From NCBI GenBank assembly GCA_964638475.1, contig CAZXAZ010000001.1, positions 110,640 to 174,639 on the forward strand: a stretch of 64,000 nt of DNA, given 5' to 3'. The DNA comes from an uncultured Alistipes sp. (GTDB lineage: Bacteria; Bacteroidota; Bacteroidia; Bacteroidales; Muribaculaceae). The notes under the pieces are model-generated. The model worked only from the letters and a program-made list of their open reading frames with translations, had not been told where the DNA came from and did not search any database. Of this stretch, positions 23,364 to 51,423 are shown one piece after another (within the stretch, counting starts at the first letter, position 1; the number at the start of each line of letters is the position of its first letter). Both the position numbers and the translations under genes were made by a program.

Positions 23364-25013
23364 ATGGCAACTAAACCGTTCCATTATCAGGAGATGTTCC
23401 CCCTCGGACCCGATACTACCGAGTATTATCATCTCACCTCCGATTATGTAAAAGTTGAGAATTGGGGAGGCCACGAATTCCTCGTGGTTGATCCTGAGGC
23501 TTTGACCGTTCTTGCTCGTCAGGCGACTCACGATAATGCCTTTATGCTACGTCGCGAGCATAATGAGATGGTGGCTAAGATTCTGCACGATCCTGAAGCT
23601 TCCGACAATGATAAGTTCGTTGCCTTGACAATGCTGCGCAACGCTGAAATCGCAGCAAAAGGTGAGCTGCCGTTCTGCCAAGATACCGGTACGGCTATTT
23701 GCCATGGCGAAAAGGGACAGCGTGTCTTCACCGGTTGTGACGATGAAGAGAAGATTTCTCGCGGTGTTTACGATACTTATACTCAGTGTAACCTCCGCTA
23801 TTCTCAGAACGCGCCTCTCACAATGTATGACGAGGTGAATACCGGATGTAATCTCCCTGCCCAGATTGATATCCACGCTTCAGAAGGCGACGAATATAAG
23901 TTTGTATTCGTTGCAAAAGGTGGCGGTTCGGCCAACAAAACTTACCTTTATCAAGAAACAAAAGCGATCATCAATCCCAAGACTCTCGTTCCATTCTTGG
24001 TTGAAAAGATGAAAACTCTCGGCACTGCTGCTTGTCCGCCTTATCATATTGCGTTTGTAATTGGTGGTACTTCTGCAGAAAAGAATCTCGAAACTGTAAA
24101 GAAGGCGTCAATTAAATATTACGACAACCTTCCGACAACCGGTAATGAATATGGTCGTGCGTTCCGCGATGTAGAGCTCGAAAAAGAACTTCTCGAAGCT
24201 TCTCGCAACATCGGTCTTGGCGCTCAATTTGGTGGCAAATATTTTGCTCATGATATTCGCGTTATCCGCTTGCCTCGCCACGGCGCATCTTGCCCCATTG
24301 GTATGGGCGTAAGTTGTTCGGCTGACCGCAATGTTAAGGCAAAAATCAACAGAGAAGGTCTTTGGATTGAGAAACTCGATACCAACCCCGGTGAACTTAT
24401 CCCCGACGAATTGCGTAACCCCGCTGAAAGCAATGCAGTCAATATCGACCTCAATCGTCCAATGAATGAAGTGTTGGCTGAGCTTGACAAATATCCCGTT
24501 GCTACTCGCCTCAACCTTTCTGGAACTATTATCGTAGGTCGAGACATCGCTCACGCTAAGATTAAAGAACGTCTCGATAATGGTGAACCTATGCCTCAAT
24601 ATCTTAAGGATCACCCGATCTATTATGCCGGTCCTGCAAAAACACCTAAGGGAATGGCTTCAGGTTCATTCGGCCCGACAACAGCCGGACGTATGGACCC
24701 CTATGTAGACCAATTCCAAAAAGCCGGAGGCTCTATGATTATGATTGCTAAGGGTAACCGTTCACAGCAGGTGACCGATGCTTGCCACGCTAATGGCGGT
24801 TTTTATCTTGGCTCGATCGGAGGTCCTGCGGCGATCCTTGCCAATGACTCGATAAAGAAGGTTGAACTCCTTGAATATCCCGAGCTTGGTATGGAGGCAA
24901 TCTGGAAAATCGAAGTAGAAAACTTCCCCGCGTTTATCCTTGTTGATAATAAGGGTAACGACTTCTTCAAGAAAATTCAGGAGAAGTGCACCGGATGTCC
25001 GCTCTCAAAATAA
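23364..25013 (+). CDS. Class I ([4Fe-4S]) fumarate hydratase
   Basis: [34 protein letters not shown]; fused alpha/beta form (fumA/fumB family). Confidence 0.96.
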
Positions 25014-36700: not shown

Positions 36701-36984
36701 TTAACCCATTTAAATTTCCAAGTTCCATTTAAATCTAACCACATAGCATCGGTTGGAGATAGCCATGGCTCATGGAATCGAACGTCTTTTTTTAGAGAAG
36801 TTTTAGTCGCGTAGGGCATAAATGTTGCGTGCCCTTCTTCTTTGTTGACTGCAAAGATATTTTGATTAGAAATCCAATTGACATCAAATTCAGTTGCTCT
36901 ATTTTCAGATGTAACATCTTTATTCTTTGCGTTAAGATTGAGCGCAAAGAGTAGCGATATTACGATTAATAGATAATTCTTCAT
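33748..36984 (-). CDS. GH2 beta-galactosidase (LacZ-like)
   Basis: Signal peptide; EGQDMWRLSGIHRDV, IRTSHYP, WSLGNE, ICEYAHAMG. Confidence 0.92.
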   Translation of the reverse strand: MKNYLLIVISLLFALNLNAKNKDVTSENRATEFDVNWISNQNIFAVNKEEGHATFMPYATKTSLKKDVRFHEPWLSPTDAMWLDLNGTWKFKWVKGTPDGPAPSEYQDANLDDSDWDNIRVPMSWEMTGKYNLPTYNNTGYPFRNEPPFARHGFEEHGIIDHNATGFYRRSFNLPADWINKRVFIHFDGVYSCCVVWLNGKFVGYSQGANNVAEFDLTNFVKQGENQLSVRVYRWCDGSYLEGQDMWRLSGIHRDVYLYATPKTYIRDHYITTINQSEDGCSGILNVALELDNRDKESCAKLIKMELVDATGKVVTSVEKQIELSDSKTTVNLTSPLLSDLTPWNAENPYLYDVIISQLSNDKEEMVFATKYGFRKIAEVNNEQGEHYFTINGKRIFFKGVNAHDSHPLYGRYMDNETMLRDITLMKQANVNTIRTSHYPRHEKMNAMFDAFGLYVVDEADLECHGNNGLTRDITWRSAFEDRNIRMVMRDRNHPSVIFWSLGNENGSGENMYHCYDAVRKLDPRPIHCHGEDATDMYSEMYTSVGSAQNKQSGHNGKPFFICEYAHAMGQAVGNLVDYWQVIEKSSGIVGACIWDWVDQAIFNPENINNGNLVNVDGFLALTGGYDYDPWFKTHVNNDKAFQGNFLNNGIITADRKWTAKLTEVKKVYQHVAFSDWDGNSVVVENKYPFNNLDDLFYLQYQILKNGELIEQGKCDVNVKALQHKRIEIPFQSKINDDEEYSLIVGLCLKESQLWADKDYRLADEQFLLTNRKPLDIIDIKGKIKVSGNIVTGKNFTIEFNEHGAIKSYRYNGKELIASSPEYNDFRRIDNDNEGKQALRDPNDGHGGYDYAATGIERHEIISPLTKSGNVAELSMAATGCKTNYQVTYKVYPNGIVDMIVSFEPQRRGLRRLGLGFEFSAGFEEVEYYAKGPWSNYKDRQTGSYLGIYTSTIRDMVDENTHPQTYGDHQELRELLLKNKQIGINLRIKTEGMVSFSLSHYNELEWNHSTHFTKLHWADLTKHDTLFAHFDYWHRGIGNNSCFSDCCLPQYETPYPGNNQGADKLTYTLRFIPESISN

Positions 36985-37009
36985 GGTAGTTTATTTTGAA
37001 TTATATTGG

Positions 37010-38263
37010 TTATTTGATGGGTTCAAGAGCAGACATTGCCTCCATTAGCATACATCCGGTTACGTGAGGAGTCAATCCTACCGGCTGATTATCGGCAGGA
37101 GCTTCCCACCATTTGCCGCCATAAAGCATTGTGTTATGGTTGATACCATTCGTTAACATTACGGTTGCTAAATGAGTCAGATAATTGTGGAATTTAAGGC
37201 GGGTATATTTATCTAAACTATCGTCATTGATGAGTTTAACGAAATATCTGAAGAATATACCATGGAATAGCCCTCCGTCTCCGCTCGTCGCGTCAGACAA
37301 AACTCCACGATTGGTTGACATATGGTTGATTACATAGTTTGCTGTATGAATGGCGTCGTCTAAATAGCTCTTCTCTCCGGTGATTTTATAAAGCTCGTGT
37401 GCTGCCCCTAAAAATGTTCCTTGATTGTAGGTGAATATCCAATTACGATTAACACGACCATCTTTCGACATATTATCGGCTACAGCGCCGCTTGTTTCGT
37501 CATAAAGATTTGTTCTCATCCACTGATATATTCGCTTAGCCTCATTGAGATATTCTTTGCGGGCTTTTTCGCCATTGAGTCCGGATTTTTCGTAGAAGTT
37601 ATATATTCGCGCGGCGATAAGGGCGGCAGGCCCGTTTGAACAAGCGTTTTTCGATTTGTCGGTATCGGTTTTCCAAGTAATGCCCCCATACCAAGGCGCT
37701 TCGTCATCAGGGCCCCAAGTAGTCCAAATCCATTGGTCATACATCTGCACTGCCTTTTTGAAATATGACGCATCATTTGAGCTCTCATACATGCGTATTT
37801 GAGTCAAAACAATCCACTCCATATCGTCGACAAAAACATTCCACCAACGGTCTTCTGCTCTGCCGGAGAAATTAAACTTCGGAGCTCCTTCCCACCATAA
37901 TGGATACATATCTAAGTAGCGTTTGTCTTTAGTGCGCATATATGCGTCAATAATGACATCCATAGCGTGGGCTTGAGGCCAATAATGAGATGTTGTCATA
38001 TTAGACAAGTCACTGCCGTAGTTGAAATAATATCGATCTTCGTAGCCGGGGAAACTTGCGCCCCAAAATCGTTCGATGAGCGAATTTACCATTCCGTCTG
38101 CAATTCGACTCCAATAGTTGACATCTTTTACCGAGCTATCAGTTGACAAGCACTGAATAGTCTCACTGCCTGTTGTAGATTTATCCTCAACTTGATGAAT
38201 GGGTTGTGAATTTACAGATATTCCAATAGCAATCAACCCTAAACAAACTATTTTTCTAATCAT
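37010..38263 (-). CDS. GH76 family glycoside hydrolase (alpha-1,6-mannanase-like)
   Basis: Signal peptide; YWPQAH, FVDDMEW catalytic pair, KNACSNGP, FTYNQG, GDGGLFHGIF. Confidence 0.88.
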   Translation of the reverse strand: MIRKIVCLGLIAIGISVNSQPIHQVEDKSTTGSETIQCLSTDSSVKDVNYWSRIADGMVNSLIERFWGASFPGYEDRYYFNYGSDLSNMTTSHYWPQAHAMDVIIDAYMRTKDKRYLDMYPLWWEGAPKFNFSGRAEDRWWNVFVDDMEWIVLTQIRMYESSNDASYFKKAVQMYDQWIWTTWGPDDEAPWYGGITWKTDTDKSKNACSNGPAALIAARIYNFYEKSGLNGEKARKEYLNEAKRIYQWMRTNLYDETSGAVADNMSKDGRVNRNWIFTYNQGTFLGAAHELYKITGEKSYLDDAIHTANYVINHMSTNRGVLSDATSGDGGLFHGIFFRYFVKLINDDSLDKYTRLKFHNYLTHLATVMLTNGINHNTMLYGGKWWEAPADNQPVGLTPHVTGCMLMEAMSALEPIK

Positions 38264-38312
38264 ATTATTGATGTCATTATAACAGAAATGGGGTAACGAT
38301 TTTATTCTTATA

Positions 38313-38320
38313 CAAAGTTA
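38313..38320 (-). promoter_or_regulatory. -7 promoter element (TAACTTTG) for GH76-GH2
   Basis: Consensus element 50 nt upstream of the GH76 start and downstream of a terminator. Confidence 0.65.
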
Positions 38321-38397
38321 TATTTTTTTCTAAAACATAAGAATTATCTGATTACAAGCGATTATTCAATTGATATTACGATTAGGTCAAAAAGATA

Positions 38398-38426
38398 GCC
38401 CGAACTTCGATCAACGAAGTTCGGGC
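38398..38426 (-). terminator. Terminator ending the TonB-receptor/ABC operon
   Basis: Perfect 12-bp stem GCCCGAACTTCG/CGAAGTTCGGGC followed by a U-rich tract on the minus strand. Confidence 0.85.
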
Positions 38427-38449
38427 ATAGGTGTATTGTTGGAGTTGGA

Positions 38450-39061
38450 TTATTGGGGGAGAATTTCGTAGGCGGTTGCTTGGATGTAGTAAGTTGAGAG
38501 GTAAGGCTTGCCTTCGAGGCTGTCGCGTTGAGCGATGCGTGAGCGATAGTCTGCCATTTGTGCTGCGAAGGTCTCAACATCAGCTTGTCCGGCAGCTTTG
38601 CGCTCTGTTTCGCAACCGGTGGGAGCGTTTTTGTAGTTTTCAGCTTCCTCTTGACCCTGTTGTTCGGCGATGCGTTCGATTTGTCCCTGACGGTTTTGTT
38701 CTAGCTCGCGGATAGCTTGTTCGTCAAGACGACTTTCCATAACAACACCGGTTACGCGAAGAGGCTGATGGATTGTTTCTTGAGGGAAAACGTTACCCAT
38801 TTCAGCAGTTGCATCACAGCGAATCATAGCGTTGTCGTCAGAGCCGAGAAGAAACGCTTTACGACCACCATGTTTGCATAGGTGAGAAACTACACCTTCG
38901 ATTGTCACAGTCTGACCGACGAATGCTTCAGGATTAGCGAGGATTGTGTCAACAGTGATGGCTTCAGCCTCGGCGGCTTCGTTTGCTGATTTGCTTGAAC
39001 AGCCGGTAGCAACGAATGCTATAATGGCTGTAATAGCCCAAAGAATAATGTTCTTGTTCAT
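38450..39061 (-). CDS. Lipoprotein with OB-fold-like N-domain and His/Cys motifs
   Basis: Lipobox VATGC; TVDTILANP..VGQTVTIEGVV pattern; SHLCKHG, IRCDA, GCETE. Confidence 0.75.
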   Translation of the reverse strand: MNKNIILWAITAIIAFVATGCSSKSANEAAEAEAITVDTILANPEAFVGQTVTIEGVVSHLCKHGGRKAFLLGSDDNAMIRCDATAEMGNVFPQETIHQPLRVTGVVMESRLDEQAIRELEQNRQGQIERIAEQQGQEEAENYKNAPTGCETERKAAGQADVETFAAQMADYRSRIAQRDSLEGKPYLSTYYIQATAYEILPQ

Positions 39062-39101
39062 TGTAGTATTATTTTTTTGTTATTATGTTTAGTGAGTTGA
39101 T

Positions 39102-40355
39102 TTAGTCGTTGAGTAAGAGGAAGGGAATAAATGAGAACACACCGAAAGACAGTGTAATAGCAGCGCCCAATTTCATAGTCGAATCTTTACGTCGAATGCC
39201 GATGATAAGCAGTGAAAGCGAGAGCAAAATGTTGAGCGGTAATGCATAAAATGACATATATATAACGCGTGGATAAGCGAGAGAGTCGTAGATAGAGGTG
39301 AACGTAAGGGCATAGGGAAATATATAGTTAGCCACCTCTGCTGCTGTTGATTTCTCGCGTATGAAGTCGAGAGAGCCGATAAGCTCAAGACTATCAGCGT
39401 CAAACGAGCGCCAACGAGTGCCTTCCGGCCCGGTAAATCTAAATGTCAAGTTAAATAGATTTCCCATCGCCATAATTGATTCTTTATAGGGATTTATACA
39501 GCCTGCTCCAACTGGAAGTTGTCGAGCGATATGCCCTTCTGTTTCGATGATATAAGGATGTCCGTCACTATCGATTACTAATCCGAGCAGAGCCCTGTTA
39601 GAGCCTTCCCAAATATATGATTTTTCAGCTTTAACACCGTCGGGTAGGGGAATTGCTACGACATATGGGCGTCCGCCTCGTTGTTTGACATGGAATAGTT
39701 TCCCTTTGGAATCAATCATTAAGTAACCTTCGTCATATTGCTTTTGGGCAGTAACGTTAGCCGAAAGGTCGGTAGCTGGGAAACAGAACCCACGAGATTT
39801 CATCGCGTCGGTAAACCTCCGAGAGCGCGTAGCGTTTACGCTGTTGTCGGCAATCTTTACGAATTCGATACCCTCGTTAGAGATACGGAAAGCTTCATCC
39901 GGGTCAGATAGGTCGACACGTACCGGCATAGATTCCATCATCATCCACATTCCGCTGTTTCGCTTGTTTGTTTCGCGAGGCGAGCAGTTAAAAAATAGTT
40001 CGTGAGTGCGGAGAGTATGAACCGTCGTCTCTTTTCCTAAGATAGAATCGGGAAGTTTGTCGTGAGCTGCAAGCTGACGATAGTATAGTTGAGGGGCGAG
40101 CGAGTCGCGCATTGCGATAGTAATTGTTTCACCGTTTAAAGCTTCTTCGGTGGAAGCGAAAGGTTGACAGATTGTGATATGAGTTTTCTCGCCGGGTTTT
40201 GAGCGGCTAACAATCCACTGACCGTTAAGAGGGGAGAGTGAGCAGAACGGGTCATTGCCTGCCGAAGGGGTCAACAAAGCATAGAGCCAGGGGAGAAACC
40301 AGCTCAAAACCGCGATAGCAACGGCGAATAATATGATTTTTGAAAACTTTGACAT
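39102..40355 (-). CDS. DUF4857-like inner-membrane protein
   Basis: N-terminal TM, about 330-aa soluble domain, two C-terminal TMs; start set at MSKFSK (40355; ORF track 40391). Confidence 0.72.
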   Translation of the reverse strand: MSKFSKIILFAVAIAVLSWFLPWLYALLTPSAGNDPFCSLSPLNGQWIVSRSKPGEKTHITICQPFASTEEALNGETITIAMRDSLAPQLYYRQLAAHDKLPDSILGKETTVHTLRTHELFFNCSPRETNKRNSGMWMMMESMPVRVDLSDPDEAFRISNEGIEFVKIADNSVNATRSRRFTDAMKSRGFCFPATDLSANVTAQKQYDEGYLMIDSKGKLFHVKQRGGRPYVVAIPLPDGVKAEKSYIWEGSNRALLGLVIDSDGHPYIIETEGHIARQLPVGAGCINPYKESIMAMGNLFNLTFRFTGPEGTRWRSFDADSLELIGSLDFIREKSTAAEVANYIFPYALTFTSIYDSLAYPRVIYMSFYALPLNILLSLSLLIIGIRRKDSTMKLGAAITLSFGVFSFIPFLLLND

Positions 40356-40383
40356 AATGAGATTGTTGCAAAGATTGAGAATA

Positions 40384-41055
40384 TTAATCAATTTGTCCCT
40401 GCCTAAAGCGGATGATCGACTGGTAGCTTAAAGTTGCGAGTAACAATGTTGCGATTATGGCAAACGGCAAATAGCCATTATATGCTCCCGGAACAGGTTG
40501 CAGGTAATAAAGTGTCGCAAAGCCGACTCCGATTAATGCGAGCAAAATTCGACGTTTCCATCGCCCTTCAAGACAAACGGCTGTAGCGAAGAAGTAAGCC
40601 GTATATCCGGCGATATACCAAGTCAACGAAGTCATTAGCACATGCCACGTCATTTCAGCCACAATTATCCCACTGTAGAAAATCCAAATTGAGACGAATT
40701 GAATTAGAAAAATCAACGTTAGTTCGGTGAACCCAGTTGCGAGCATCGTCATCAAGAGTTTCAACGATGAGCACGGAAGATGTAGCGTAAGTTTCAAACG
40801 ATTTTGTTGCATTTCGGGCATCATTTGCGACAAACCGATGAGTAGCCCGCAAAGCAACGGTATATATTTGATTGAATCGATAAAAGTCTGGTCTTTCATT
40901 AACATAATCAACCAGATATGTTCAACTCCGTGAGTTGTAATCACTCTATTGATTCCCAACATTGCATATACTGTGAAGAATAGCGCTAGGAGAAAGCAGA
41001 CCCAGAAAGCCCTGCGAGTTTTGAGTAATTCCTTTATGATTATAGCTTTTGTCAT
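40384..41055 (-). CDS. ABC-2-like permease (about 6 TM)
   Basis: KAIIIKELLKTR start, PEMQQNRLKLTLHLP coupling-helix-like motif; follows an ABC ATPase. Confidence 0.75.
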   Translation of the reverse strand: MTKAIIIKELLKTRRAFWVCFLLALFFTVYAMLGINRVITTHGVEHIWLIMLMKDQTFIDSIKYIPLLCGLLIGLSQMMPEMQQNRLKLTLHLPCSSLKLLMTMLATGFTELTLIFLIQFVSIWIFYSGIIVAEMTWHVLMTSLTWYIAGYTAYFFATAVCLEGRWKRRILLALIGVGFATLYYLQPVPGAYNGYLPFAIIATLLLATLSYQSIIRFRQGQID

Positions 41056-41081
41056 AGCGTAAGATGATTTTGTTAGAGCGA

Positions 41082-41978
41082 TTAGTAACGTCCGGTCAGT
41101 CCGATAAATGCATCCTCGAGAGAGTCAACGGCAAACGCCTCCAGAGAAGAAGCCTTAATCCCGGCATTCGAGAGTGTTGTTGCAACATGTTCGGGGGTGA
41201 AGAATGAGTAGAATTCAAACTTGTCGTTACTTTGCCATGGGCTGTAAATGCCTTCAATATCTGTTGGTATCATTCTCTGATCGTCGCAACAACGATATTC
41301 ATATCGTTTAAGATTGCTCATCAACTGTTTGACCGGTTGTTGTGTAAGAATCTTGCCGTAATCGAGAATGATGCAATCGTCAACCAGTCTTTCGAGATCT
41401 TGAATAATATGAGATGTCATAAAGACCGTTTTACCTTCAGATTTTACGAAATCGCGGAGATAGTCGACGAATAGTCTACGATATCCGGGGTCGAGACCCA
41501 AAGAGAAATCGTCAAGCACGAGCAAATCGGCGTTTTGTGCTAAAATCAAGCCTAACGCAACTTGTGATCGTTGGCCGTTAGACATTGATGATATCTTTTG
41601 TCCGGGTGAGACATGTAGCTTTTCCATCAAGCCGTAGTAGGCATCGCGATTCCATTTCGGATAGAATTGAGAATAAAATTTCTCAATCTGTGAGATAGTC
41701 ATAAAAGTGTATTGCACATGACCTTCAAGAAGCAACGCAATGCGGCGACGTGTTCTCGGCTTGAGTTTGGTTATATCCTCATCAAAAATGCGACATTCTC
41801 CGCCCTGAGGCTTAAGGAAGCCCATCAGAATGTTAATTGTTGTTGTCTTGCCGGTTCCGTTTTTGCCCAAAAGTCCGAGGATGCTTCCTTGGGGAACATC
41901 AAAACTCAGATTTTCGTAGATGAGTCTGCCACGCCCATAGCGTTGGGTCAGATTCTTTACAGATATTACGCTTTCCAT
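41082..41978 (-). CDS. ABC transporter ATP-binding protein (exporter-type, non-canonical Walker B)
   Basis: GKNGTGKTT, MSNGQ signature, LLVLDDFSLGLD, SHIIQD. Confidence 0.93.
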   Translation of the reverse strand: MESVISVKNLTQRYGRGRLIYENLSFDVPQGSILGLLGKNGTGKTTTINILMGFLKPQGGECRIFDEDITKLKPRTRRRIALLLEGHVQYTFMTISQIEKFYSQFYPKWNRDAYYGLMEKLHVSPGQKISSMSNGQRSQVALGLILAQNADLLVLDDFSLGLDPGYRRLFVDYLRDFVKSEGKTVFMTSHIIQDLERLVDDCIILDYGKILTQQPVKQLMSNLKRYEYRCCDDQRMIPTDIEGIYSPWQSNDKFEFYSFFTPEHVATTLSNAGIKASSLEAFAVDSLEDAFIGLTGRY

Positions 41979-42009
41979 TAGCGATATTGTGGTAATTTAC
42001 GTGTTACAA

Positions 42010-43602
42010 TTAAATGTTGATACCAAACGAAAGTGAAGCATAATTAGCCGAGCCACATTTTTGCGAAAAATCGAGGCGTTGCCAGCTTCCTTTTATATAG
42101 AGAGAAGCAGAGTCAATAATGGGGAACTCTACTTTTGCCATTATCCTATATGTTGTAATGTTAGAAGTCATTACCGAACCATTGCGTTCAACCGCTTGAC
42201 CGATTGCTTCAGACAAATCTAGGCCATTTAGAGAGACTGTTTCGGGAGAGGTAAAACGGTGAGAGATATTGCAATTTATGGTCAAGAGAGCCCCTTTCGA
42301 GAAACGTCTTATCCAATCAATGCCGATCGAAGGCGTAAAATTGAGGGTAGATATTTTGCGGAAAGGTTCATTAATCTTTTCCGTTACAGAAAGATATTTG
42401 CCCCCGACAGCGAGACTCAGCCTATTTAAATGATCGATGCGCCATTCTATTGGTATGGTTAACTGAATATCGTAGATTGTTTTACGATAATTCTCGCGTT
42501 CTCCGATTTTAGGATAATTATTACCGGTAGACGAACCAAGCAGATTCTCTGTGCCGACTTTTTGGTTGTATTTGCCACATAATATAAATCCGTAGCTTAT
42601 ATTTGTCTCACTTTCCCTACCCAAAATCATGGCATATTCGCCACTAAAAGAAGTTGTTGAAGTATTGGTTAATTCGAGATTGTTGAAATCGCGCATATAT
42701 TGGCGCAATTTTATGTTTGAAAACTCAATCAATGAGCTAATCGGTGTTGTCGTTCTTGATTGAGGAAATAGAGAAGCCGAGATATTGAATCCCACTCCGG
42801 AATACGCCGTATTGCGTCCGCTGTTGCCGGAAAATCGAGGATAAAATGAGCCGAGTCCGGTCATGGCGTATGTCGGTATGTCATTCATTGGATTGTAGAA
42901 TTCGATGGCGGCAGTTTGATTGTAGACTCTTACATCGCCGGTTAGTCCAACTGCAAGACTCGAACGTGTCGGACGGAAACTACCTCCCAGCGCGATGTTA
43001 AGGTCTGATACAATTATTTTATCGCGAGGGTCGCGACCGCGATAATCTATTGATGCTCGATAAGAAGCCTCAACACCCCAACTCCAATGAGTCGATTCTC
43101 CCGCATAACCGCCACCAAAGTCATAGCTGCGTCGCGTTAAATCACCGCCAACGGGGTCTCCGATAACGTAAGGACCGACAAGATCGTAATCAGCAGAGTT
43201 GTTCCAAACAACATCTTTAATTGTTCCGGCATGAAATTGTGCATGCCCCCATACGGTTGTTGAGTTACCGATGTGACGATAAGATGAAGCATTAACACTG
43301 CCGACGAGTTCGCCCTTGCCAATTTCTGCCGGAAGAGTTTGCTCCGTTTCCGACAGAGAGCCTTGTAAGTAGAGTGAAGTAAAAGAGAATGGTAGGAATT
43401 CAGTCATAGCGGCAGGGCTTTTGGCTGACGCTAAGCGGCGAAATTGATAGTCGAGAGATTCCGTCGCCCACGATTTATCGATTGCCGTAGTCTGAGTCGT
43501 TTCGACAATAGTATCAGTCACACCGATGCCGGTAGCCCCGTTGACTGAGGCGACCGACATAAGTGTGGCTATTAAAGTGTATGTTGAGTTGTTGATAGAC
43601 AT
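42010..43602 (-). CDS. DUF6850-like outer-membrane beta-barrel protein
   Basis: Signal peptide, alternating beta-strand pattern, C-terminal SLSFGINI; start codon overlaps upstream stop by 1 nt. Confidence 0.75.
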   Translation of the reverse strand: MSINNSTYTLIATLMSVASVNGATGIGVTDTIVETTQTTAIDKSWATESLDYQFRRLASAKSPAAMTEFLPFSFTSLYLQGSLSETEQTLPAEIGKGELVGSVNASSYRHIGNSTTVWGHAQFHAGTIKDVVWNNSADYDLVGPYVIGDPVGGDLTRRSYDFGGGYAGESTHWSWGVEASYRASIDYRGRDPRDKIIVSDLNIALGGSFRPTRSSLAVGLTGDVRVYNQTAAIEFYNPMNDIPTYAMTGLGSFYPRFSGNSGRNTAYSGVGFNISASLFPQSRTTTPISSLIEFSNIKLRQYMRDFNNLELTNTSTTSFSGEYAMILGRESETNISYGFILCGKYNQKVGTENLLGSSTGNNYPKIGERENYRKTIYDIQLTIPIEWRIDHLNRLSLAVGGKYLSVTEKINEPFRKISTLNFTPSIGIDWIRRFSKGALLTINCNISHRFTSPETVSLNGLDLSEAIGQAVERNGSVMTSNITTYRIMAKVEFPIIDSASLYIKGSWQRLDFSQKCGSANYASLSFGINI

Positions 43603-44837
43603 TAATGAGTTGATTTCAGTAGGAAGTCAGCTGCAGAATCGTCAGAATCTTGAAGTATTACACGACCGTCGGGGGTAGTAGTAGCTGTTTTGCGAACGAA
43701 TACTTTGCCGAAACGTTGGGGATCTGAATTCTTTTCAGAGATGCAAGCGAATGAAGCATCTATAGAGGGCGCAAGCGCACCATGAACAAATGTTTCGAGG
43801 TTGCCGAGGTTGACACCGTCTATAATCCAGCTGTTGGGAATACGACAAGCATTTTGCTTGGTCATTTCCATACCTGTTGCGGGGTGGATATATTTGTAAG
43901 AGCCTTTGTATTCAGCGAGATAGCTTTCTACATTCATTCCTTCGGGCATCTTCACCAAAGCGTATGAACGGTTACATTGGTTTGATATAATCCAGATAGA
44001 GTTAGAATAGCTAAACCATTTTTCGAGGTTGGGAACCGAAGGGTTGTCTGTATCCATCGCATGGTCGTCATACCATTCGAAGTCGGCATCTGTCAGATTA
44101 AGAGCCCCTTCAACTTCAGCGCTCCAATCGATAGCTTGGTCAACGATGGTAATGTATTCTCCCGGTTCAACAGCAACATCTTTTCCGCTTCCTGGGATAA
44201 CCCAAACGGTGCCGGCTGTAAAGTTGACGTTGAGGTCGTTTTCGGGCGTGAGAATAGTGTAGTCGTTAGTGCGAGAGTTAACGAAGTCTGATTCACATAT
44301 AGCAAGGCCGTCGGCATATAGGGTTTCGGCTGAGTTGTTATAGATACGGATATATGTGTCTTTCAGCCCATTCTTACCGGTAGCGTTAGGCGAACCGGCA
44401 GCGAAGATTTCGCTGATAACGAAGCCTTCAGAGGGAGTTGACTTAAACCAATTGAGAGTCAAACTTTGAGCCCCGGTGATTGTAACCGAATTGCCGATAG
44501 AGCGAAGTAAGAGCGATTTTTCAGAGCCGTCAGAAAGGGTAGTTGAGTAGTTGATTTCACCGGCGTAGTCATAGATGCCGACCGGCAAGGTTACCGATTC
44601 AACGGCGTTATTGTCGTCAGCGTCAGATGGGAATGAGTAAGTAACACGAGTATTGAGCTCGGTGAAAGAGATTGACGAGTTAATAAACTCAGCATCTTCG
44701 GCATCGAAATCTTCGGGAAAATTGTTGTCGAGAGCGATAGTGAATTTCTGTTCCTCCGGAGTGTCGTTGTCGTCGGAGCAAGAGGAGAATCCTGCGCATA
44801 GAGAAATCGTGGCGAGGATAAAAGCAAACTTTTTCAT
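43602..44837 (-). CDS. DUF4876-like surface lipoprotein
   Basis: Lipobox FSSC + acidic SDDND; FVISEIF..DTYIRIYNN..LYADGLAI (lamin-tail-like) motif. Confidence 0.78.
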   Translation of the reverse strand: MKKFAFILATISLCAGFSSCSDDNDTPEEQKFTIALDNNFPEDFDAEDAEFINSSISFTELNTRVTYSFPSDADDNNAVESVTLPVGIYDYAGEINYSTTLSDGSEKSLLLRSIGNSVTITGAQSLTLNWFKSTPSEGFVISEIFAAGSPNATGKNGLKDTYIRIYNNSAETLYADGLAICESDFVNSRTNDYTILTPENDLNVNFTAGTVWVIPGSGKDVAVEPGEYITIVDQAIDWSAEVEGALNLTDADFEWYDDHAMDTDNPSVPNLEKWFSYSNSIWIISNQCNRSYALVKMPEGMNVESYLAEYKGSYKYIHPATGMEMTKQNACRIPNSWIIDGVNLGNLETFVHGALAPSIDASFACISEKNSDPQRFGKVFVRKTATTTPDGRVILQDSDDSAADFLLKSTH

Positions 44838-44883
44838 TTGGTATTTATGTTTTTATTTGAGTTTTAATTATGGAGGCATGGAA

Positions 44884-47511
44884 TTATAGTTTGAAATTCA
44901 TTTCCATTCCGAAATAAGGAGATGTATAGCGGCGTTGGATAGTGCCATACAACTCATAGTCGGGAGTGATGCTTATCAGTCGGTTGACATATAAGGCAAC
45001 ACCAATTCTGTCGTTCCAAAGTTTCTTGGTAGCTTTGATATTAAACGAAGTGGCTATAGGAATACGACGTTCGTCAAAGGCGCTTTTCGAGTAGTCTCGC
45101 AGCAACTGACCCAGGTAAGGATCAGAGGTGTCAGTTGGGTTCCATTTATGTTCAACACCATCGAGTCCGACATATTTAGTCGGCATTCCCGCTTTTGGCA
45201 GCGTTTGATTAGTTGTGAACCACATATTCTGCACCGACATCGAAATATTTAACTTCAAGCGAGGAATATCAGTGTCAAACGTAAAGTTGGTATTGAAAGA
45301 TTGGTAGACTGTGCCTTCATTGTCGTTATAGTATCCGGCATAGGGGAGTTCTTTGCCATTGACGATAATCGAAGGCTTATACCAAAGACCGGTTGAATTT
45401 GCCATAGTTGTTTTAAACCATGCTCCATTAACCGTTACACGAGTACGAACAATTGGGAAACGTCGAGAAGAGAAAGTAAATTCAACACCCTCTTTGTCGA
45501 TGCGCGACGAATTCGTCGGACGGCTGACCATAGCAATTTTGCTTTCGGTTGTGAAAGGCAGATTGTCAATCTTCGGAGCGCCGTTAATTATCGGGTCATA
45601 AGATGAAGCATCGTATCGGTTGTAGGTGTGGTAACGTACCTCTGATGCCATGCGGAATGCGTCATTCATATTCTCGCGGAAATATGTGACCGAAAGACGA
45701 TTACCCTTATACGAAATGTCACCGCAAACTTCCCATTTTAAGTTACGAGCAGCTTTGATGTCATAGTTGACACGGTCGTCGACGAAGGTCATTACATTCA
45801 TCGTGCGCCATTGCTCATTATCGTGGAAATAGTTAAGCTGCACTTCATCGGTATAAATCATATCGGGATAAAGATATGCAGCAACCGGCATCTTCGTGTG
45901 TAGTCCGGCACCTCCACTTAATGCAAAGATAATCGGTTCGTTATCAACCGATAGATAGGGGAGAGTCCATTTCAGGTTGGCTCGCGGGTCGAAATATGGG
46001 CGACCTGAGAGGTAATATCTACCATCAAGATTGAGCAGCTGCGTTTCGCGAAGACCAATTTGTAGATGCAGAGTATGGTTGCCAAATCTCGCTTCTGACT
46101 CATTCTCGATATAAACCGATAATTGTTGCATAGCCGGAATATCGTTGAACGGGCGCGGACGCGAGTTATTGCCGGCTGTGAGCGGGCGAGTCAAATCGTA
46201 TACCTGCCCTTTACCGAAGTTTTTCGACAAAATCCACTCTGCTCCCGCTTTTAGCCTTCCGGAAAAATTTGAATGACGGTAGCGTAAATTCGATGACAGT
46301 TTTATGAACGTTGAGAAAGGCTTTCCATAGACATCATAGTCTGCGGTATATAGCATCGGGAGATATCCTACATAATTTGAGCCGGGAGTAGTTGAAACCG
46401 GCATTGGGTAGAGACGAGTTGATCCGACGCTTTTTTGTTGGCGTAAACGCTCGTCAGAGTACCTTATGCCGGTTGTTAATCCGAGATTGTTGAAGAAACC
46501 GCTTCGACGTGATACGATAACAAGAGTGTTATTCCAACAAAAATTATTGACATCGTTGGTATAATAATCAATCGTATTATTAACCGTCAAGTCTGGATCG
46601 TTTTTGTCGCGCTCAAAAGTGCCGGTGTAGTTGAGTGAAGTATCCCATGTAAGGTCATTTCCCCAAACAGTGCTTTTAAGGTTGCTACGGAGCGAGAAGG
46701 TTGCGCGTTTATAGTTTTGGCGATTGTCGCGCGGGTCTATACGAGAGTCGAGATAGTCAGCCGAAAGGTTAATAGTCCACCAGTCTCGAGCAGGCATATT
46801 AAACCCTTTTGCAATATGGAAAAGTTGGCTCTGCATATCAGCTTTGAAACGAGCATCAAGACCGGTCGCCCCATTCTTGCGCTTGATTTTTACAAGTCCC
46901 GAAGTCAGTTCGCCATACTCAACTGATGGTATTCCTCTGACGATTTCAACGCTTTCGATATCGTCTGTCGCAATAGATCGCATATCAACTCCTTTACCGG
47001 TCGTCAGTCGTCCGCTGCGCTCCGAGTCGGGGGTAGATTGCATCGCTGCGGAAGTGTTCACCGGAACACCGTCTATAACGAATGACGTGCCTAACGACGA
47101 TGTGTCATATCCATCAGGAGCGGCTTGTGGCGCTTGGCGCAAGTTGATAAGGTTTGCCTTCCCCATGTCGGGGTCTTTCGATACGAATCCGGGCAACAAT
47201 TCAACGAGGTCTGTAAAACTCGATGGTTGAAGATGAGCCATCGCTTGACGATTGATAAGCGATGCCGAAGTAACGCCACGGCTCTCGCGAGCTGTTACAA
47301 CAACTTCACCTAATTCTTTCCCGAGCATTTCTTGTTCGCGACGGTCGAGGTCGGCGAGTAACATCGAATCAATTCGGGCGATAGCGTCAAGCGAATCTTT
47401 TTTGAGAGAAGACACGGTCACTTGGGCATTGTTCTCCTTAACCGAAGATAACATTGCCGAAACGTTTGTCAATAACAACAGCGATATGACCGAAATTTTT
47501 GTAGAACTCAC
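44884..47511 (-). CDS. TonB-dependent receptor
   Basis: GTG start; TonB-box-like LGEVVVTA; plug motifs IDGVP, DIESVEIVRG, YGELTSGLV; C-terminal FGMEMNFKL. Confidence 0.93.
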   Translation of the reverse strand: MSSTKISVISLLLLTNVSAMLSSVKENNAQVTVSSLKKDSLDAIARIDSMLLADLDRREQEMLGKELGEVVVTARESRGVTSASLINRQAMAHLQPSSFTDLVELLPGFVSKDPDMGKANLINLRQAPQAAPDGYDTSSLGTSFVIDGVPVNTSAAMQSTPDSERSGRLTTGKGVDMRSIATDDIESVEIVRGIPSVEYGELTSGLVKIKRKNGATGLDARFKADMQSQLFHIAKGFNMPARDWWTINLSADYLDSRIDPRDNRQNYKRATFSLRSNLKSTVWGNDLTWDTSLNYTGTFERDKNDPDLTVNNTIDYYTNDVNNFCWNNTLVIVSRRSGFFNNLGLTTGIRYSDERLRQQKSVGSTRLYPMPVSTTPGSNYVGYLPMLYTADYDVYGKPFSTFIKLSSNLRYRHSNFSGRLKAGAEWILSKNFGKGQVYDLTRPLTAGNNSRPRPFNDIPAMQQLSVYIENESEARFGNHTLHLQIGLRETQLLNLDGRYYLSGRPYFDPRANLKWTLPYLSVDNEPIIFALSGGAGLHTKMPVAAYLYPDMIYTDEVQLNYFHDNEQWRTMNVMTFVDDRVNYDIKAARNLKWEVCGDISYKGNRLSVTYFRENMNDAFRMASEVRYHTYNRYDASSYDPIINGAPKIDNLPFTTESKIAMVSRPTNSSRIDKEGVEFTFSSRRFPIVRTRVTVNGAWFKTTMANSTGLWYKPSIIVNGKELPYAGYYNDNEGTVYQSFNTNFTFDTDIPRLKLNISMSVQNMWFTTNQTLPKAGMPTKYVGLDGVEHKWNPTDTSDPYLGQLLRDYSKSAFDERRIPIATSFNIKATKKLWNDRIGVALYVNRLISITPDYELYGTIQRRYTSPYFGMEMNFKL

Positions 47512-47534
47512 TTTATTTGCCTTGATTTACAATG

Positions 47535-47542
47535 CAAATTTA
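47535..47542 (-). promoter_or_regulatory. -7 promoter element (TAAATTTG) of the TonB-receptor operon
   Basis: Consensus element 23 nt upstream of the GTG; no clear TTTG at -33. Confidence 0.65.
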
Positions 47543-47591
47543 CTATTAAAAATTGGTTATGTTATTGGTTATATTGCTGATAGATAGTAAA

Positions 47592-47609
47592 ATACCTAAA
47601 AATAGGTAT
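47592..47609. promoter_or_regulatory. Palindromic operator copy 1 (ATACCTA-AAAA-TAGGTAT)
   Basis: Perfect 7-4-7 inverted repeat upstream of the receptor promoter. Confidence 0.7.
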
Positions 47610-47656
47610 CGCGAATCTTTAATATTACTCAATCTGTATATCGTCCGTTATGTATG

Positions 47657-47676
47657 AATACCTAATGTTAGGTATT
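47657..47676. promoter_or_regulatory. Palindromic operator copy 2 (AATACCTAA-TG-TTAGGTATT)
   Basis: Same 7-4-7 core, 66 bp from copy 1. Confidence 0.7.
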
Positions 47677-47774
47677 GCAGAAGTCTGCTTTTCTGTTCAG
47701 AGTATATTTTTCTGTATATCCCCGCCCGTGAGCGAGGGGGCTGTGCTTCTCTGATGTAATGTTTTCCCAAAAAA

Positions 47775-47811
47775 AATCAGGCGATATGTCGCTGTGACAT
47801 ATCGCCTGATT
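47775..47811 (-). terminator. Terminator ending the three-lipoprotein operon
   Basis: Perfect 16-bp stem AATCAGGCGATATGTC/GACATATCGCCTGATT followed by a T-run on the minus strand. Confidence 0.88.
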
Positions 47812-47828
47812 ATTGAGTTAGTATTGGA

Positions 47829-50024
47829 TTACTCGTAGATGAGTTCCATGTCGTCGAGATACATTACCGAAGGACCTCCGGTGAAGTAATCACCCATCTT
47901 CGATGCAGATGCAACGAGGATGATGTTAGAGGGACGAACATCGGTGCGCTTGTAGTCGAGGGGAATTGTTACCTCAATTAAACCCTCACCGGCTGTAGCT
48001 TCTGTGAAGATATGCTCGCCATAAGCAATAACTTGATCGTCATCCTTTTCGAATAGAGATCGTTCGCTAGATTTCGTCTTAACAACGAAAGGCCATGCTT
48101 CATTGTTGTAGCTTGTCTTAGTACCGTCAACAAGAGCGATATAGATAATACCTTTATCCATGTCGCCATTCTTAACGTTATCAGGATTAGACGAAGTTCT
48201 GTCAACAACTGCGGGAGTATATTTAACCCAAAAGCGGAGAGCTGTGGGGCGAGCTGTGAATGGGCGTCCCCAACCGAGCACACCATCGGTGCCGTCTGTT
48301 GCCAAATACTTACCGATGAATACGTTACCTGCTGCGAATTTACCAATTGGACCAAAACCTACAAATTGGCTACTAAGCTTAATAGAAGAGTTCCCGCTAT
48401 GTTTGAGGTCGGTTGCTTGTTCTGTGATGTTTTTGCTCATAGTGATTGAGCCATGGTTACCGCTATCCCAGTAGAAATCGTTAGGGTCGGCACTCGGAAT
48501 TAGAGCTTTATCACTGCCTGTACACCAATCTTCAAAGCTGGCATTGGGGAGTTGAGGCTCGCCTTCTGTGGTAAATTCTTGAATAGAAGTAGACTCGAAG
48601 CTATCACAGTAAGCTGCTACTTGATAGGTTGTGGCTGGTGTAAGACCGGTAAGCTCAATGCTATAATCATTTTCGGTAATGGTCTCTGCCTGAACTTTTG
48701 TCCACTGCTGAGTGCCCTTTACGCGATACATAATACCGGGGTTGGTAGCTTCTTCGCGTAGCACTTTACCTGAGATTACAGCCTTGCGAGAGGTGATAGT
48801 CAGAGCGTTGGGGTCAACATCTTGAATCATAACCTTGGCATTTGTCGGAATGATTCGTAACGAAGCGTTAGCTTTGCGACCATTTGCATCAATTGCGGTT
48901 ACTTTTATTGTGTAATCACCTTCTGTAAGGGTATTGAGGAATGTTTTCTCAAAGTTGAGTTTTACCTCAGAGAAACCGGTGTCGGCATGTGTTGTTTTAT
49001 CAAAGTTGATACCGGCTGTTTCGAGAATACTCTTCACATCATCAGACATACCTAAAAGCTCGAAGTCGTTACCACCGAGTTCGGTAATGAATGAGAAAGC
49101 AGTGCTCTCAACTACAATTTCAGAAAAATCAGTAGCTGCTGCAAGCCAAAGTGAACGGCGAGGCATATCGCCAACCATTCCGGTTACAGGCTCTGTCATA
49201 TCATAGTTGAAACCTGAAATTGTAGGAGCAGAAGTGATTTCGTAAGAATCTTCAACTTCAATTTCGGTTGTGTCAACCTCGATAGTAATCAATGCGCCAC
49301 CGATAGCTTCTTCAGCTTGGTCGTTGTGTTTAACGTTTAAGTGATATTCGGTTGCCCGAGCAACATCAACAATCGTATCGGTGAATGTAAACGGCTGATT
49401 GTTTGATAACAATGTGCCTTTAAGAGTGTAGATTAGGCTCTTAGAACGAGAGTTGGTCATGAAGTAACCTTTTGCTCCTTGCTCTACTTTTTCTTGAGTA
49501 AACTCAAGGGTGCCATTGCGAGTGCCGGTTGATTTGTCGTGACCGACTTCGATTGTAACATCTTTGAGTAGTTCGCTAATCTTGTCGGAATATTCAACAG
49601 ACACGAGGGTGTTTGCAATCTTACAGCATACGTTTACTTGTGTGGCAGAGCCTTTGGTGATATCAAACTCTTCGCTGCCCTTGAAATAGCGGTCTTCCCA
49701 AGAGGCTGACACAGAGTCGCCTGCCCATGCTTCCGCGATATAGTGGCCTGAAAGTAGTTTGATGCCTCCGGCAGGCACTTCGTCAATGCCGTTATATTTA
49801 TGAACAGCACCTTTGGCGTTTGAAATCCAAATAAGAGTGTTTTGTGCGAGCTCGTCGTTAGTCTGTCCGGCGCGAGTCTTTACGACTACATCGGAATTGA
49901 CAGTAGCCTTAAGCATCAGGCGTCCTTCCCCTTCACCCTCTTCGTAGGGGCGGAAGGTGTCGGAGCAGGCAGAAAGCGCTGCGATCGCCAGAAGCGAGGC
50001 ACAATAGTTAATATATTTATTCAT
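47829..50024 (-). CDS. Surface lipoprotein: DUF4493-like + Ig-like + FN3 + PCMD-like domain
   Basis: Lipobox LSAC-SD; KTRAG; GLTPATTYQV FN3; QLPNASFEDW...WDSGN...LYLDD-type C-terminal domain (MYLDDMELIY). Confidence 0.8.
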   Translation of the reverse strand: MNKYINYCASLLAIAALSACSDTFRPYEEGEGEGRLMLKATVNSDVVVKTRAGQTNDELAQNTLIWISNAKGAVHKYNGIDEVPAGGIKLLSGHYIAEAWAGDSVSASWEDRYFKGSEEFDITKGSATQVNVCCKIANTLVSVEYSDKISELLKDVTIEVGHDKSTGTRNGTLEFTQEKVEQGAKGYFMTNSRSKSLIYTLKGTLLSNNQPFTFTDTIVDVARATEYHLNVKHNDQAEEAIGGALITIEVDTTEIEVEDSYEITSAPTISGFNYDMTEPVTGMVGDMPRRSLWLAAATDFSEIVVESTAFSFITELGGNDFELLGMSDDVKSILETAGINFDKTTHADTGFSEVKLNFEKTFLNTLTEGDYTIKVTAIDANGRKANASLRIIPTNAKVMIQDVDPNALTITSRKAVISGKVLREEATNPGIMYRVKGTQQWTKVQAETITENDYSIELTGLTPATTYQVAAYCDSFESTSIQEFTTEGEPQLPNASFEDWCTGSDKALIPSADPNDFYWDSGNHGSITMSKNITEQATDLKHSGNSSIKLSSQFVGFGPIGKFAAGNVFIGKYLATDGTDGVLGWGRPFTARPTALRFWVKYTPAVVDRTSSNPDNVKNGDMDKGIIYIALVDGTKTSYNNEAWPFVVKTKSSERSLFEKDDDQVIAYGEHIFTEATAGEGLIEVTIPLDYKRTDVRPSNIILVASASKMGDYFTGGPSVMYLDDMELIYE

Positions 50025-50036
50025 TGCTTTCTCCTG

Positions 50037-51401: not shown

Positions 51402-51423
51402 AACTTAGGGTTTGGCGTGTTAA

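Follow-up and report, generated by a model that had tools for sequence, protein, structure and literature searches.

How a metal that has passed a TonB-dependent receptor (TBDR) reaches the cytoplasm is poorly understood in Bacteroidota, since solute-binding proteins and importers are often missing from the loci concerned. An operon in the window analysed here (a 64,000-nucleotide stretch of contig CAZXAZ010000001.1, from an uncultured Alistipes sp.) raises this question: it links a receptor and its predicted lid to a conserved, unstudied ABC-2/DUF4857 complex and to a widespread family of Cys/His lipoproteins. The seven-gene operon is real and conserved in gut Bacteroidales, and its most likely role is the uptake of iron or some other redox-active metal by a route so far undescribed. 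Because a counterpart in the genetically tractable Bacteroides thetaiotaomicron ranks among the strongest chelator-induced loci of that species, the question is directly testable; moreover, the system is common in Muribaculaceae, a dominant mouse-gut family, and could therefore bear on metal competition in the gut and on nutritional immunity.

Operon layout and promoter region

Seven co-oriented minus-strand open reading frames occupy positions 38450-47511 of the window in the ORF list, with the same coordinates and the same tight spacing as a sequence-only reading of this DNA had described. From gene 1 onward the successive gaps measure 46, −1 (a 1-nt overlap), 31 and 26 nt, and 40 nt separate genes 6 and 7. 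The junction of genes 5 and 6 depends on the start codon: an ATG at 40355 leaves a 28-nt gap, and a TTG at 40391, which gives the longest ORF, produces an 8-nt overlap. The ATG is probably the true start, giving a protein of 417 aa, because the homologues are about 417 aa long and cover 97% of the longer ORF.

Strong terminators flank the unit on both sides: the upstream boundary is set by the terminator of a DUF4493 lipoprotein gene (47775-47811, minus strand; 16-bp stem and T-run), and directly after gene 7 an intrinsic terminator closes the operon (38398-38426, minus strand; 12-bp stem with 8 G-C pairs, 5-nt loop, T-rich tail), in agreement with the perfect terminator reported in the sequence-only reading. 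That reading had also noted the lack of a SusD, a solute-binding protein and a hydrolase, and our Pfam and NCBIfam scans likewise found none of these within the seven-gene unit.

Direct reading of the promoter region revealed two copies of an operator-like perfect palindrome, ATACCTA-N4-TAGGTAT, one proximal (47592-47609) and one distal (47658-47675); no further perfect copy occurs anywhere in the 2.17-Mb genome. With up to two mismatches allowed, 15 of 54 related loci have the motif close to the start of the receptor gene, and the same search gave three matches in about 1 Mb of other sequence from those loci. The palindromes are not recognisable as a Fur or DtxR box. A candidate Bacteroidetes −7 promoter element, TAAATTTG (47535-47542, minus strand), which we take to fit the TAnnTTTG consensus, lies about 24 nt upstream of the GTG start of gene 1. 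A search of positions 38300-47900 against Rfam at a permissive threshold matched no riboswitch.

The outer-membrane genes

Gene 1 (44884-47511, minus strand) encodes a TBDR of 875 aa and of non-SusC type, with a signal peptide, a TonB-box-like GEVVVTA and a Plug domain at residues 81-203 (Pfam, 44.6 bits against a cut-off of 23.9). It has no Pfam match to PF00593, and the roughly 670 residues that follow the plug leave room enough for a barrel. No SusC or siderophore-receptor model in NCBIfam reached its cut-off for gene 1, and neither Pfam nor NCBIfam gave a SusC or a SusD match in any of the seven proteins, the adjoining lipoprotein belonging instead to DUF4876. This lipoprotein, the 411-aa product of gene 2 (43602-44837, minus strand; DUF4876, 140.8 bits against a cut-off of 27.9 in Pfam), carries the acidic export signal C-S-D-D-N-D and is predicted to form the surface lid of the receptor: DUF4876 proteins are TBDT lids according to AlphaFold-Multimer prediction (bioRxiv 10.1101/2023.03.17.533168). 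Many Asp, Glu, Trp and Tyr residues are conserved in its family, and its only PDB relative by sequence is 4q1z, a distant one titled "putative lipoprotein".

Gene 3 (42010-43602, minus strand), whose start overlaps the stop of gene 2 by 1 nt, encodes a 530-aa DUF6850 protein (Pfam, 255.1 bits against a cut-off of 27). It is a probable outer-membrane β-barrel: its homologues match OMP_b-brl as well, and DUF6850 also matches, weakly, the barrel portion of an OmpA-family protein encoded in the same genome. PDB relatives by sequence were found neither for gene 1 nor for gene 3, the latter searched both as a single sequence and as a profile. The sequence-only reading had given the names DUF4876 and DUF6850 correctly. 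It had placed them in the Capnocytophaga transferrin iron-capture locus, a link that found no support: the accessible part of the literature on that system describes a Sus-like SusC/SusD PUL complex.

The inner-membrane complex and the OB-fold lipoprotein

Gene 4 (41082-41978, minus strand) encodes a DrrA/ABCA-like ABC ATPase of 298 aa (ABC_tran, 78.7 bits in Pfam). Its best NCBIfam matches are PmtA, DrrA, GldA and NodI, all well under their cut-offs, and the closest solved nucleotide-binding domains are those of ABCA3/1/7/4. The signature reads MSNGQ; the Walker B motif reads LLVLDD and thus departs from the canonical hhhhDE, with Asp in place of the catalytic Glu. In ABC enzymes such a replacement suggests slow ATP hydrolysis, and because Asp occupies this position in all 19 of the 19 family members compared, drawn from several genome families, the sequence suggests that the gene 4 ATPase is slow as well. 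Gene 5 (40384-41055, minus strand) encodes a 223-aa permease with about six transmembrane helices by hydropathy; its ABC2_membrane_4 match barely exceeds the cut-off (27.3 against 27 bits in Pfam), and it has no solved-structure relative by sequence. A DrrA/ABCA-type ATPase and a 6-TM permease together make a type V, or ABC-2, pair, and none of the seven proteins matched a part of a canonical FhuBCD/ZnuABC-type importer (solute-binding protein, type I/II permease) in Pfam or NCBIfam. An exporter-type pair lacking a solute-binding protein, as had been proposed, is therefore what Pfam, NCBIfam and the nearest solved nucleotide-binding domains indicate.

Gene 6 (39102-40355, minus strand) encodes the 417-aa DUF4857 membrane protein (Pfam, 248.7 bits against a cut-off of 25), in which a first transmembrane helix, a periplasmic domain of about 330 aa and two C-terminal transmembrane helices are predicted. 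The AlphaFold2 model is confident (pLDDT 92, pTM 0.84), and Foldseek returned weak, generic β-propeller matches only; with TM-scores of just 0.2-0.28 we place DUF4857 in no known family. The modelled periplasmic domain is partly propeller-like, with no close fold match in the PDB, and sequence searches gave no solved-structure relative. The DUF4857 alignment contains 28 invariant residues, among them W19, F20 and P22 in the first transmembrane helix, and no conserved Cys or His.

Gene 7 (38450-39061, minus strand) encodes a 203-aa lipoprotein with its lipobox at Cys21, which is probably periplasmic because it lacks the acidic export signal. The protein matches no Pfam family, although its family comprises 1036 clusters at 50% identity; sequence searches found no solved-structure relative, and its AlphaFold2 model (pLDDT 86) retrieves the OB folds of AsnRS/AspRS/RPA in Foldseek with a probability of 1.0. 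H60, C62, C82 and C150 are invariant in the alignment and H64 is also conserved; across the wider family H60 and C62 are conserved in at least 90%, within the motif C-x-H-x-C-x-H-G-G. The conserved Cys residues could have a structural role, either in disulfides or in a Zn site. The gene of one distant family member lies between those for a MacB/FtsX-type permease and Lgt. A histidine kinase with an OB domain (P0365) was set aside, as it lies on a 1.5-kb contig and shows no transmembrane helix between its domains.

Conservation, modules and genomic neighbours

The order of genes 1 to 7 is kept in 52 of the 57 related loci with enough flank, mostly metagenome-assembled genomes of Muribaculaceae, which upholds the proposal that the genes are conserved as a unit. 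ATPase, permease and DUF4857 are the core module: in the phylum, 18 of the sampled genomes carry DUF4857, and all three genes occur together in every one of them. Where a locus extends far enough, a receptor gene adjoins this core in most cases, also in families whose regulators (ECF/FecR) and accessory genes are different. Physical coupling within the inner module is seen in another lineage, where the permease is fused to DUF4857 in proteins of 660-680 aa, and on three contigs, where a six-gene form of the operon has DUF4857 and the OB-lipoprotein joined in one reading frame. In versions from other families, a T9SS-secreted BNR/Ycf48-like propeller protein is encoded between barrel and ATPase.

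The outer (1-2-3) and inner (4-5-6-7) halves are two modules and not one obligate machine, because each occurs alone in some genomes: 4-5-6-7 cassettes stand by themselves, and 1-2-3 is likewise found without the inner half. The inner module is present where DUF6850 gave no match (family f25, G029, G105), and DUF6850 also occurs in genomes that lack DUF4857. Cooperation of the two modules is proposed because their genes are adjacent. Among 14 control genomes, B. thetaiotaomicron alone matches DUF4857, DUF4876 and DUF6850.

Neighbouring genes recur in the relatives. A PepSY_TM_like_2 gene lies directly 3′ of gene 7 homologues in five related loci and also in two unrelated contexts, one of them a TBDR-HMA-P-type ATPase arrangement; elsewhere a Fer4_5/HMA protein and FeoB adjoin the module. 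The present genome encodes FeoB at another site, and a genome-wide search for genes of the PepSY_TM_like_2 type found none. Adjacency to ychF was rejected as a general context of the operon, being seen in one relative only.

Comparison with known systems

In B. thetaiotaomicron, all nine genes of BT3625-3633 are up 37-128-fold in 150 µM dipyridyl, together with known iron genes (PMC10434189). This locus resembles the operon in its TBDR, DUF4876, ABC ATPase, small hypothetical membrane protein and DUF4857 (PMC10434189), and differs in that DUF4876 and PepSY_TM genes are each present twice and a fimbrillin-family lipoprotein is also encoded; its orthology with the operon rests on the published annotation, in which a gene 7-like lipoprotein is not reported. 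Across 519 fitness experiments, no phenotype was recorded for the receptor/lid pair of B. thetaiotaomicron. Another DUF4876/TBDR pair, PG1019/PG1020, responds to iron or haem limitation with induction, and as late as 2026 it was described as uncharacterised. Papers on BT_3630 are limited to the use of its signal peptide as a tool for secretion and were set aside as functional evidence. We found neither a characterisation of the system nor experimental data on any DUF4857 protein in the searchable literature, and the description of the system as uncharacterised stands.

The xenosiderophore system XusABC of Bacteroides (TBDT XusA, lid XusB, PepSY XusC) likewise combines a non-SusC receptor with a surface lipoprotein lid and does without a solute-binding protein or an ABC importer; it is induced by iron limitation and uses a periplasmic reductase, the latter being matched in relatives of our operon. 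However, the lid here is DUF4876 and not DUF4374, and no PepSY_TM_like_2 gene is present in the genome, so that the XusABC-type combination of a DUF4374 lid with a PepSY inner-membrane reductase is absent; beyond XusABC, the operon adds the DUF6850 barrel, the ABC-2/DUF4857 complex and the OB-fold Cys/His lipoprotein. The TonB-dependent copper importer CrtA-CrpH of Bordetella pertussis joins a receptor and a PepSY_TM protein, which overlaps functionally with the CcoG copper reductase, in one metal-starvation operon, and so parallels the PepSY_TM-like and Fer4_5/HMA neighbours of the relatives, but it belongs to an aerobe and serves haem-copper oxidases, and an ABC-2/DUF4857 module, a lid and a second barrel are all lacking from it.

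Like the inner half, GldAFG contains an ABC-2 ATPase, a permease and a membrane protein whose terminal transmembrane helices flank a large periplasmic domain. Gene 4, however, scores 110.5 bits with the GldA model against a cut-off of 402.6, genes 5 and 6 matched neither GldF nor GldG in Pfam or NCBIfam, and the partner is a receptor, not motility genes.

In layout the inner half can be compared with NosDFYL, which delivers copper to nitrous oxide reductase, works on the periplasmic side and moves no substrate through the membrane: both sets comprise an ABC-2 ATPase, a 6-TM permease, a large periplasmic partner and a metal-binding lipoprotein (putative here). The resemblance is one of architecture alone, because DUF4857 is not a NosD homologue and gene 7 is not NosL. 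NosD is a β-helix whereas DUF4857 is partly propeller-like and has no conserved Cys or His, and gene 7 has an OB fold; the seven proteins gave no NosD or NosL match in Pfam or NCBIfam, and the annotated neighbours include no nosZ. Unlike NosDFYL, which serves NosZ, the complex here is partnered with a TBDR.

A proposed two-module model for metal acquisition

We favour, with a probability of roughly 40%, the reading that the operon is a two-module system for the acquisition of a transition metal, with an inner half that is NosDFYL-like; iron would be the most likely metal and copper the main alternative. The identity of the metal, the direction of its transfer and the NosDFYL-like mechanism are points that we infer. 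The outer module, a TBDR under a DUF4876 lid together with the DUF6850 barrel, would bring a metal or metal chelate into the periplasm. The inner module would be a type V complex in which DUF4857 serves the permease as an integral periplasmic domain; instead of acting as a canonical importer, it may be a slow, ATP-switched mechanotransducer that handles its cargo in the periplasm, as NosFY-NosD-NosL does for copper. It could detach the metal from a carrier or exchange it, in either direction, with the Cys/His OB-fold lipoprotein, a release or hand-off step in which a PepSY_TM-like reductase may help in the relatives. Entry of the metal into the cytoplasm would then be left to general transporters, for example the FeoB whose gene lies elsewhere in the genome.

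A role in metal acquisition, which the sequence-only reading had also proposed, fits both the dipyridyl induction of the B. thetaiotaomicron locus and the PepSY_TM-like and HMA/P-type ATPase neighbours. Dipyridyl is not specific for iron, and the Cys/His ligand set and the HMA neighbours point to metals softer than Fe(III). The earlier interpretation survives as to the conserved block, the exporter-type ABC pair, the uncharacterised status and the metal; its suggestion of peptide acquisition found no support, and that of a captor secreted and then re-imported found no specific support, the operon containing no biosynthetic or cargo gene.

A bolder proposal, which we put forward tentatively and hold to be possible though doubtful, is that the ATPase with its Walker-B Asp, the permease and DUF4857 constitute a new class of type V ABC mechanotransducers that partner TBDRs and that, with a Cys/His OB-fold metallochaperone of the periplasm and, in many species, also a PepSY_TM-like reductase, form an ATP-driven engine for metal hand-off in that compartment. 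If true, this would be the uptake counterpart of NosDFYL and would account for the uptake of a metal by many gut Bacteroidales in the absence of any solute-binding protein or canonical importer.

Alternative explanations

We consider it unlikely that the ABC complex is instead an unconventional inner-membrane importer for the cargo of the receptor, a scheme in which DUF4857 would bind the substrate as a membrane-tethered domain and the OB-lipoprotein would shuttle it through the periplasm. Adjacent receptor and ABC genes usually form one import route, and by Pfam and NCBIfam the operon encodes no other inner-membrane transporter; but the periplasmic reductases of the relatives suggest a different path, as periplasmic reduction usually pairs with Feo-type uptake and not with chelate import. 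The permease-DUF4857 fusion recalls importers with fused binding domains, yet DUF4857 lacks conserved metal ligands. Siderophore importers with an exporter fold do exist, IrtAB and YbtPQ among them, but those known are type IV and not ABC-2, and the invariant Walker-B Asp speaks against fast transport cycles.

Less probable again is that the complex exports or recycles, either secreting a metal-capturing molecule or protein (perhaps via the DUF6850 barrel) that the receptor re-imports, or expelling an emptied carrier; PvdRT-OpmQ for pyoverdine and HasDEF for a haemophore would be the models. The ATPase and permease are of exporter type, but a slow ATPase is ill-suited to bulk export; the operon encodes a second predicted outer-membrane barrel, but inner module and DUF6850 each occur without the other, as described above; and although the T9SS-secreted propeller protein of other families would suit such a scheme, we found no biosynthetic genes, obvious cargo or MFP-type periplasmic adaptor, and nothing near the operon in this 2.17-Mb genome suggests siderophore synthesis.

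Least probable of all is that the operon handles no metal and serves another scarce nutrient or an envelope role such as the sorting of its two lipoproteins, the metal-linked expression of the relatives then being indirect: palindromes that resemble no Fur or DtxR box and are essentially unique to this operon in the genome, the distant OB-lipoprotein relative beside Lgt and the lack of a fitness phenotype for the B. thetaiotaomicron pair lean that way, but Rfam showed no cofactor riboswitch upstream, the OB-lipoprotein has a conserved Cys/His motif, the recurrent neighbours include PepSY_TM, FeoB, HMA, Fer4_5 and P-type ATPase genes, and in B. thetaiotaomicron dipyridyl strongly induces every one of the nine genes in the locus alongside known iron genes.

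Operon boundaries and conservation

The operon would be a so far uncharacterised, new form of TonB-dependent metal uptake locus, whose ABC partner is unexplained. Our preferred reading, to which we give a probability of about 40%, is that of a transition-metal acquisition system with a periplasm-facing, ATP-switched inner module. The operon is real, well bounded and widely conserved. The ORF listing places seven co-oriented minus-strand ORFs at 38450–47511, at the coordinates given by the sequence-only reading, whose description of seven tightly spaced, bounded genes proved accurate from both the ORF list and the terminators: intergenic spacings are 46, −1, 31, 26 and 40 nt, with a further gap of 28 nt between genes 5 and 6 if gene 6 begins at ATG 40355; a terminator with a 12-bp stem (38426–38398, minus strand) lies 3′ of gene 7; and one with a 16-bp stem (47811–47775, minus strand) ends the gene preceding the operon. 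GC content is even over the region and thus gives no sign of recent transfer. Directly upstream, on the same strand (47829–53916) and separated from the operon by a strong terminator, are genes for three paralogous DUF4493 proteins, two with C-terminal PCMD domains; directly downstream, past the terminator and again on the same strand (33748–38263), are GH2 beta-galactosidase and GH76 genes, which appear unrelated to the operon.

The gene set is also conserved as a unit. Scanning species-representative genomes gave 80 loci, mainly from Muribaculaceae MAGs, the closest with 74% identity in DUF4857 (gene 6). Flanks were long enough in 57 loci: in 52 of them the order 1-2-3-4-5-6-7 is colinear, and the other five have 4-5-6-7 alone (n = 3), a permuted order (n = 1) or gene 7 fused in frame to gene 6 (n = 1). 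Of 401 genomes sampled from the phylum, 19 carry DUF4857, which is preceded by the ATPase and permease in 18/18 loci outside the host genome; the receptor gene adjoins ATPase-permease-DUF4857 in most of these 18, and elsewhere there is a contig end or other genes. DUF6850 (gene 3) scores above cut-off in 30 of the 401 genomes, often where DUF4857 is absent, and DUF4857 also occurs in genomes of this sample without any DUF6850 match. This separate occurrence, together with the 4-5-6-7-only loci, points to two modules, an outer (genes 1–3) and an inner (genes 4–7), that usually travel together.

The outer module

Gene identities were assigned by Pfam and NCBIfam profile searches. Gene 1 (44884–47511) encodes a TonB-dependent receptor whose sole match is the Plug domain and which is not SusC; the host genome has 21 Plug-domain genes. 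Gene 2 (43602–44837) encodes a DUF4876 lipoprotein with an acidic surface-export signal following the lipobox Cys, and DUF4876 proteins have been predicted to be receptor lids (preprint, bioRxiv 10.1101/2023.03.17.533168). The DUF6850 product of gene 3 (42010–43602) is a probable outer-membrane barrel: its homologues also match OMP_b-brl, and DUF6850 weakly matches the barrel portion of another protein of the same genome, from the OmpA family.

The inner module

Gene 4 (41082–41978) encodes a DrrA/ABCA-like ABC ATPase, the closest solved domains being ABCA NBDs. Its Walker B motif reads LLVLDD (ATPase residues 152–157), with Asp instead of the catalytic Glu; the same Asp stands in each of the 19 family members that were compared (ILDD[F/Y]S), which have the signature MS[C/N]GQ in common, and, judged from these sequences, is a family hallmark and not a local mutation. 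Gene 5 (40384–41055) encodes an ABC-2 permease matching ABC2_membrane_4 at 27.3 bits (cut-off 27).

Gene 6 (39102–40355) matches DUF4857 at 248.7 bits. Its longest ORF runs from a TTG at 40391; the 120 homologues listed measure ~417 aa and span 97% of that ORF, so the start is best placed at ATG 40355 (417 aa). The predicted structure (pLDDT 92) has an N-terminal TM helix, a periplasmic domain of ~330 residues and two C-terminal TM helices; TM1 carries invariant W19/F20/P22 inside the motif SWFLPWLY. The second half of the modelled periplasmic domain resembles about three propeller blades, and Foldseek returned propeller matches only, all weak (TM 0.2–0.28). In one lineage permease and DUF4857 form a single protein of 660–680 aa. 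DUF4857 could also be read as a tethered binding domain, which would make the system an unconventional importer; the family alignment contains no conserved Cys or His in gene 6, and we consider this reading unlikely.

Gene 7 (38450–39061) encodes a 203-aa lipoprotein with no family match in Pfam or NCBIfam and a predicted OB fold plus helical hairpin (pLDDT 86). It has no acidic residues right after the lipobox Cys and would therefore face the periplasm. H60, C62, C82 and C150 are invariant in close relatives; across the broader family, which has no Pfam model and comprises 1036 clusters at 50% identity, H60 and C62 are at least 90% conserved, within the motif C-x-H-x-C-x-H-G-G. A PepSY_TM_like_2 gene directly follows the gene 7 homologue in five related loci, and the two relocate jointly in the permuted locus; a search of the host genome found no PepSY_TM_like_2. 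Among four genomic contexts looked up for distant family members, one has the gene 7 member, then PepSY_TM_like_2, adjoining cytochrome c biogenesis genes; another has a TBDR, an HMA protein, an HMA-P-type ATPase, the OB-lipoprotein and PepSY_TM_like_2 in order; the remaining two were uninformative. The OB-lipoprotein/PepSY_TM_like_2 pair thus recurs outside the operon context (L134:9159–10353 and L141:6001–7149), once in a TBDR-HMA-P-type ATPase cluster, and may by itself be a module that handles metal. In the fused protein P0244 (relative's contig L131:10001–11758) of one Bacteroidales lineage, a single 585-aa frame encodes both DUF4857 and the OB-lipoprotein; the junction keeps the lipoprotein signal peptide, which there would act as a third TM helix. 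Three contigs show this arrangement.

Function

The B. thetaiotaomicron counterpart, BT3625-3633, comprises DUF4857, a hypothetical protein, an ABC ATPase, two PepSY_TM proteins, a fimbrillin-family lipoprotein, two DUF4876 proteins and a TBDR, and is up 37-128-fold in BHI with 150 µM dipyridyl, in a study whose authors took it for a putative fimbrillin locus (PMC10434189); orthology was drawn from the published annotation and from the families that the control genome matches. Iron or haem limitation induces PG1019/PG1020, a DUF4876/TBDR pair of P. gingivalis that in March 2026 was still placed among 'uncharacterized transport systems'. In full-text literature searches DUF4857 appeared in one paper and DUF4876 in five; no functional work on the inner module came up. 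PepSY_TM proteins act in periplasmic reduction of ferric siderophores, and one, CrpH, supports copper supply beside a TonB-dependent copper importer. In one genome the ABC/DUF4857 module has a Fer4_5/HMA membrane protein upstream, and in others it has FeoB nearby; the host genome has FeoB as well.

The sequence-only interpretation is partly supported: its metal-acquisition part fits the expression of homologues, the Cys/His site and the neighbouring HMA genes, and its secreted captor stays a rival only. Some distant versions of the locus do combine receptor-DUF4876-DUF6850 with a T9SS-secreted BNR protein, followed by the ABC genes, and are controlled by ECF/FecR, but a system that exports or recycles a captor seems to us rather improbable. 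A non-metal role is less probable still, set between the induction by dipyridyl on one side and, on the other, the absence of a BT3632/3633 phenotype across 519 fitness experiments (bioRxiv 10.1101/2023.03.17.533168).

For the preferred transition-metal acquisition system, the expression data of homologues favour iron, and the Cys/His site and HMA neighbours would still allow copper or another soft metal. A slow ATPase would drive the permease-DUF4857 complex, which would free the metal or pass it to or from the OB-fold lipoprotein. NosFY-NosD-NosL carries out a comparable release or hand-over for copper. The likeness of the inner module to NosDFYL would be one of architecture alone; membership was rejected, as none of the seven proteins matches a Nos family and the predicted folds differ. 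The metal-uptake question is testable in a model organism.

Promoter region

The region upstream of gene 1 spans 264 nt and carries a candidate −7 element, TAAATTTG, ~24 nt ahead of the GTG start. Upstream of this element, a perfect palindrome, ATACCTA-N4-TAGGTAT, occurs twice, 66 bp apart (47592–47609 and 47658–47675), and these are the sole perfect copies in the genome (2.17 Mb searched). Of 54 related loci, 15 carry the motif close to the receptor start, against 3 matches in ~1 Mb of other locus sequence; by this comparison the operator-like palindrome is conserved among related loci. Its position would suit an activator or dedicated regulator. The operon itself contains no regulator gene, and Rfam at a permissive threshold found no riboswitch ahead of it (38300–47900). 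A weaker, putative operator copy with 2 mismatches (23257–23274) lies between ychF (21988–23091, minus strand) and a 549-aa gene (23364–25013, plus strand) earlier noted as fumarase; the operon directly follows ychF in a single relative (locus L116/L131).
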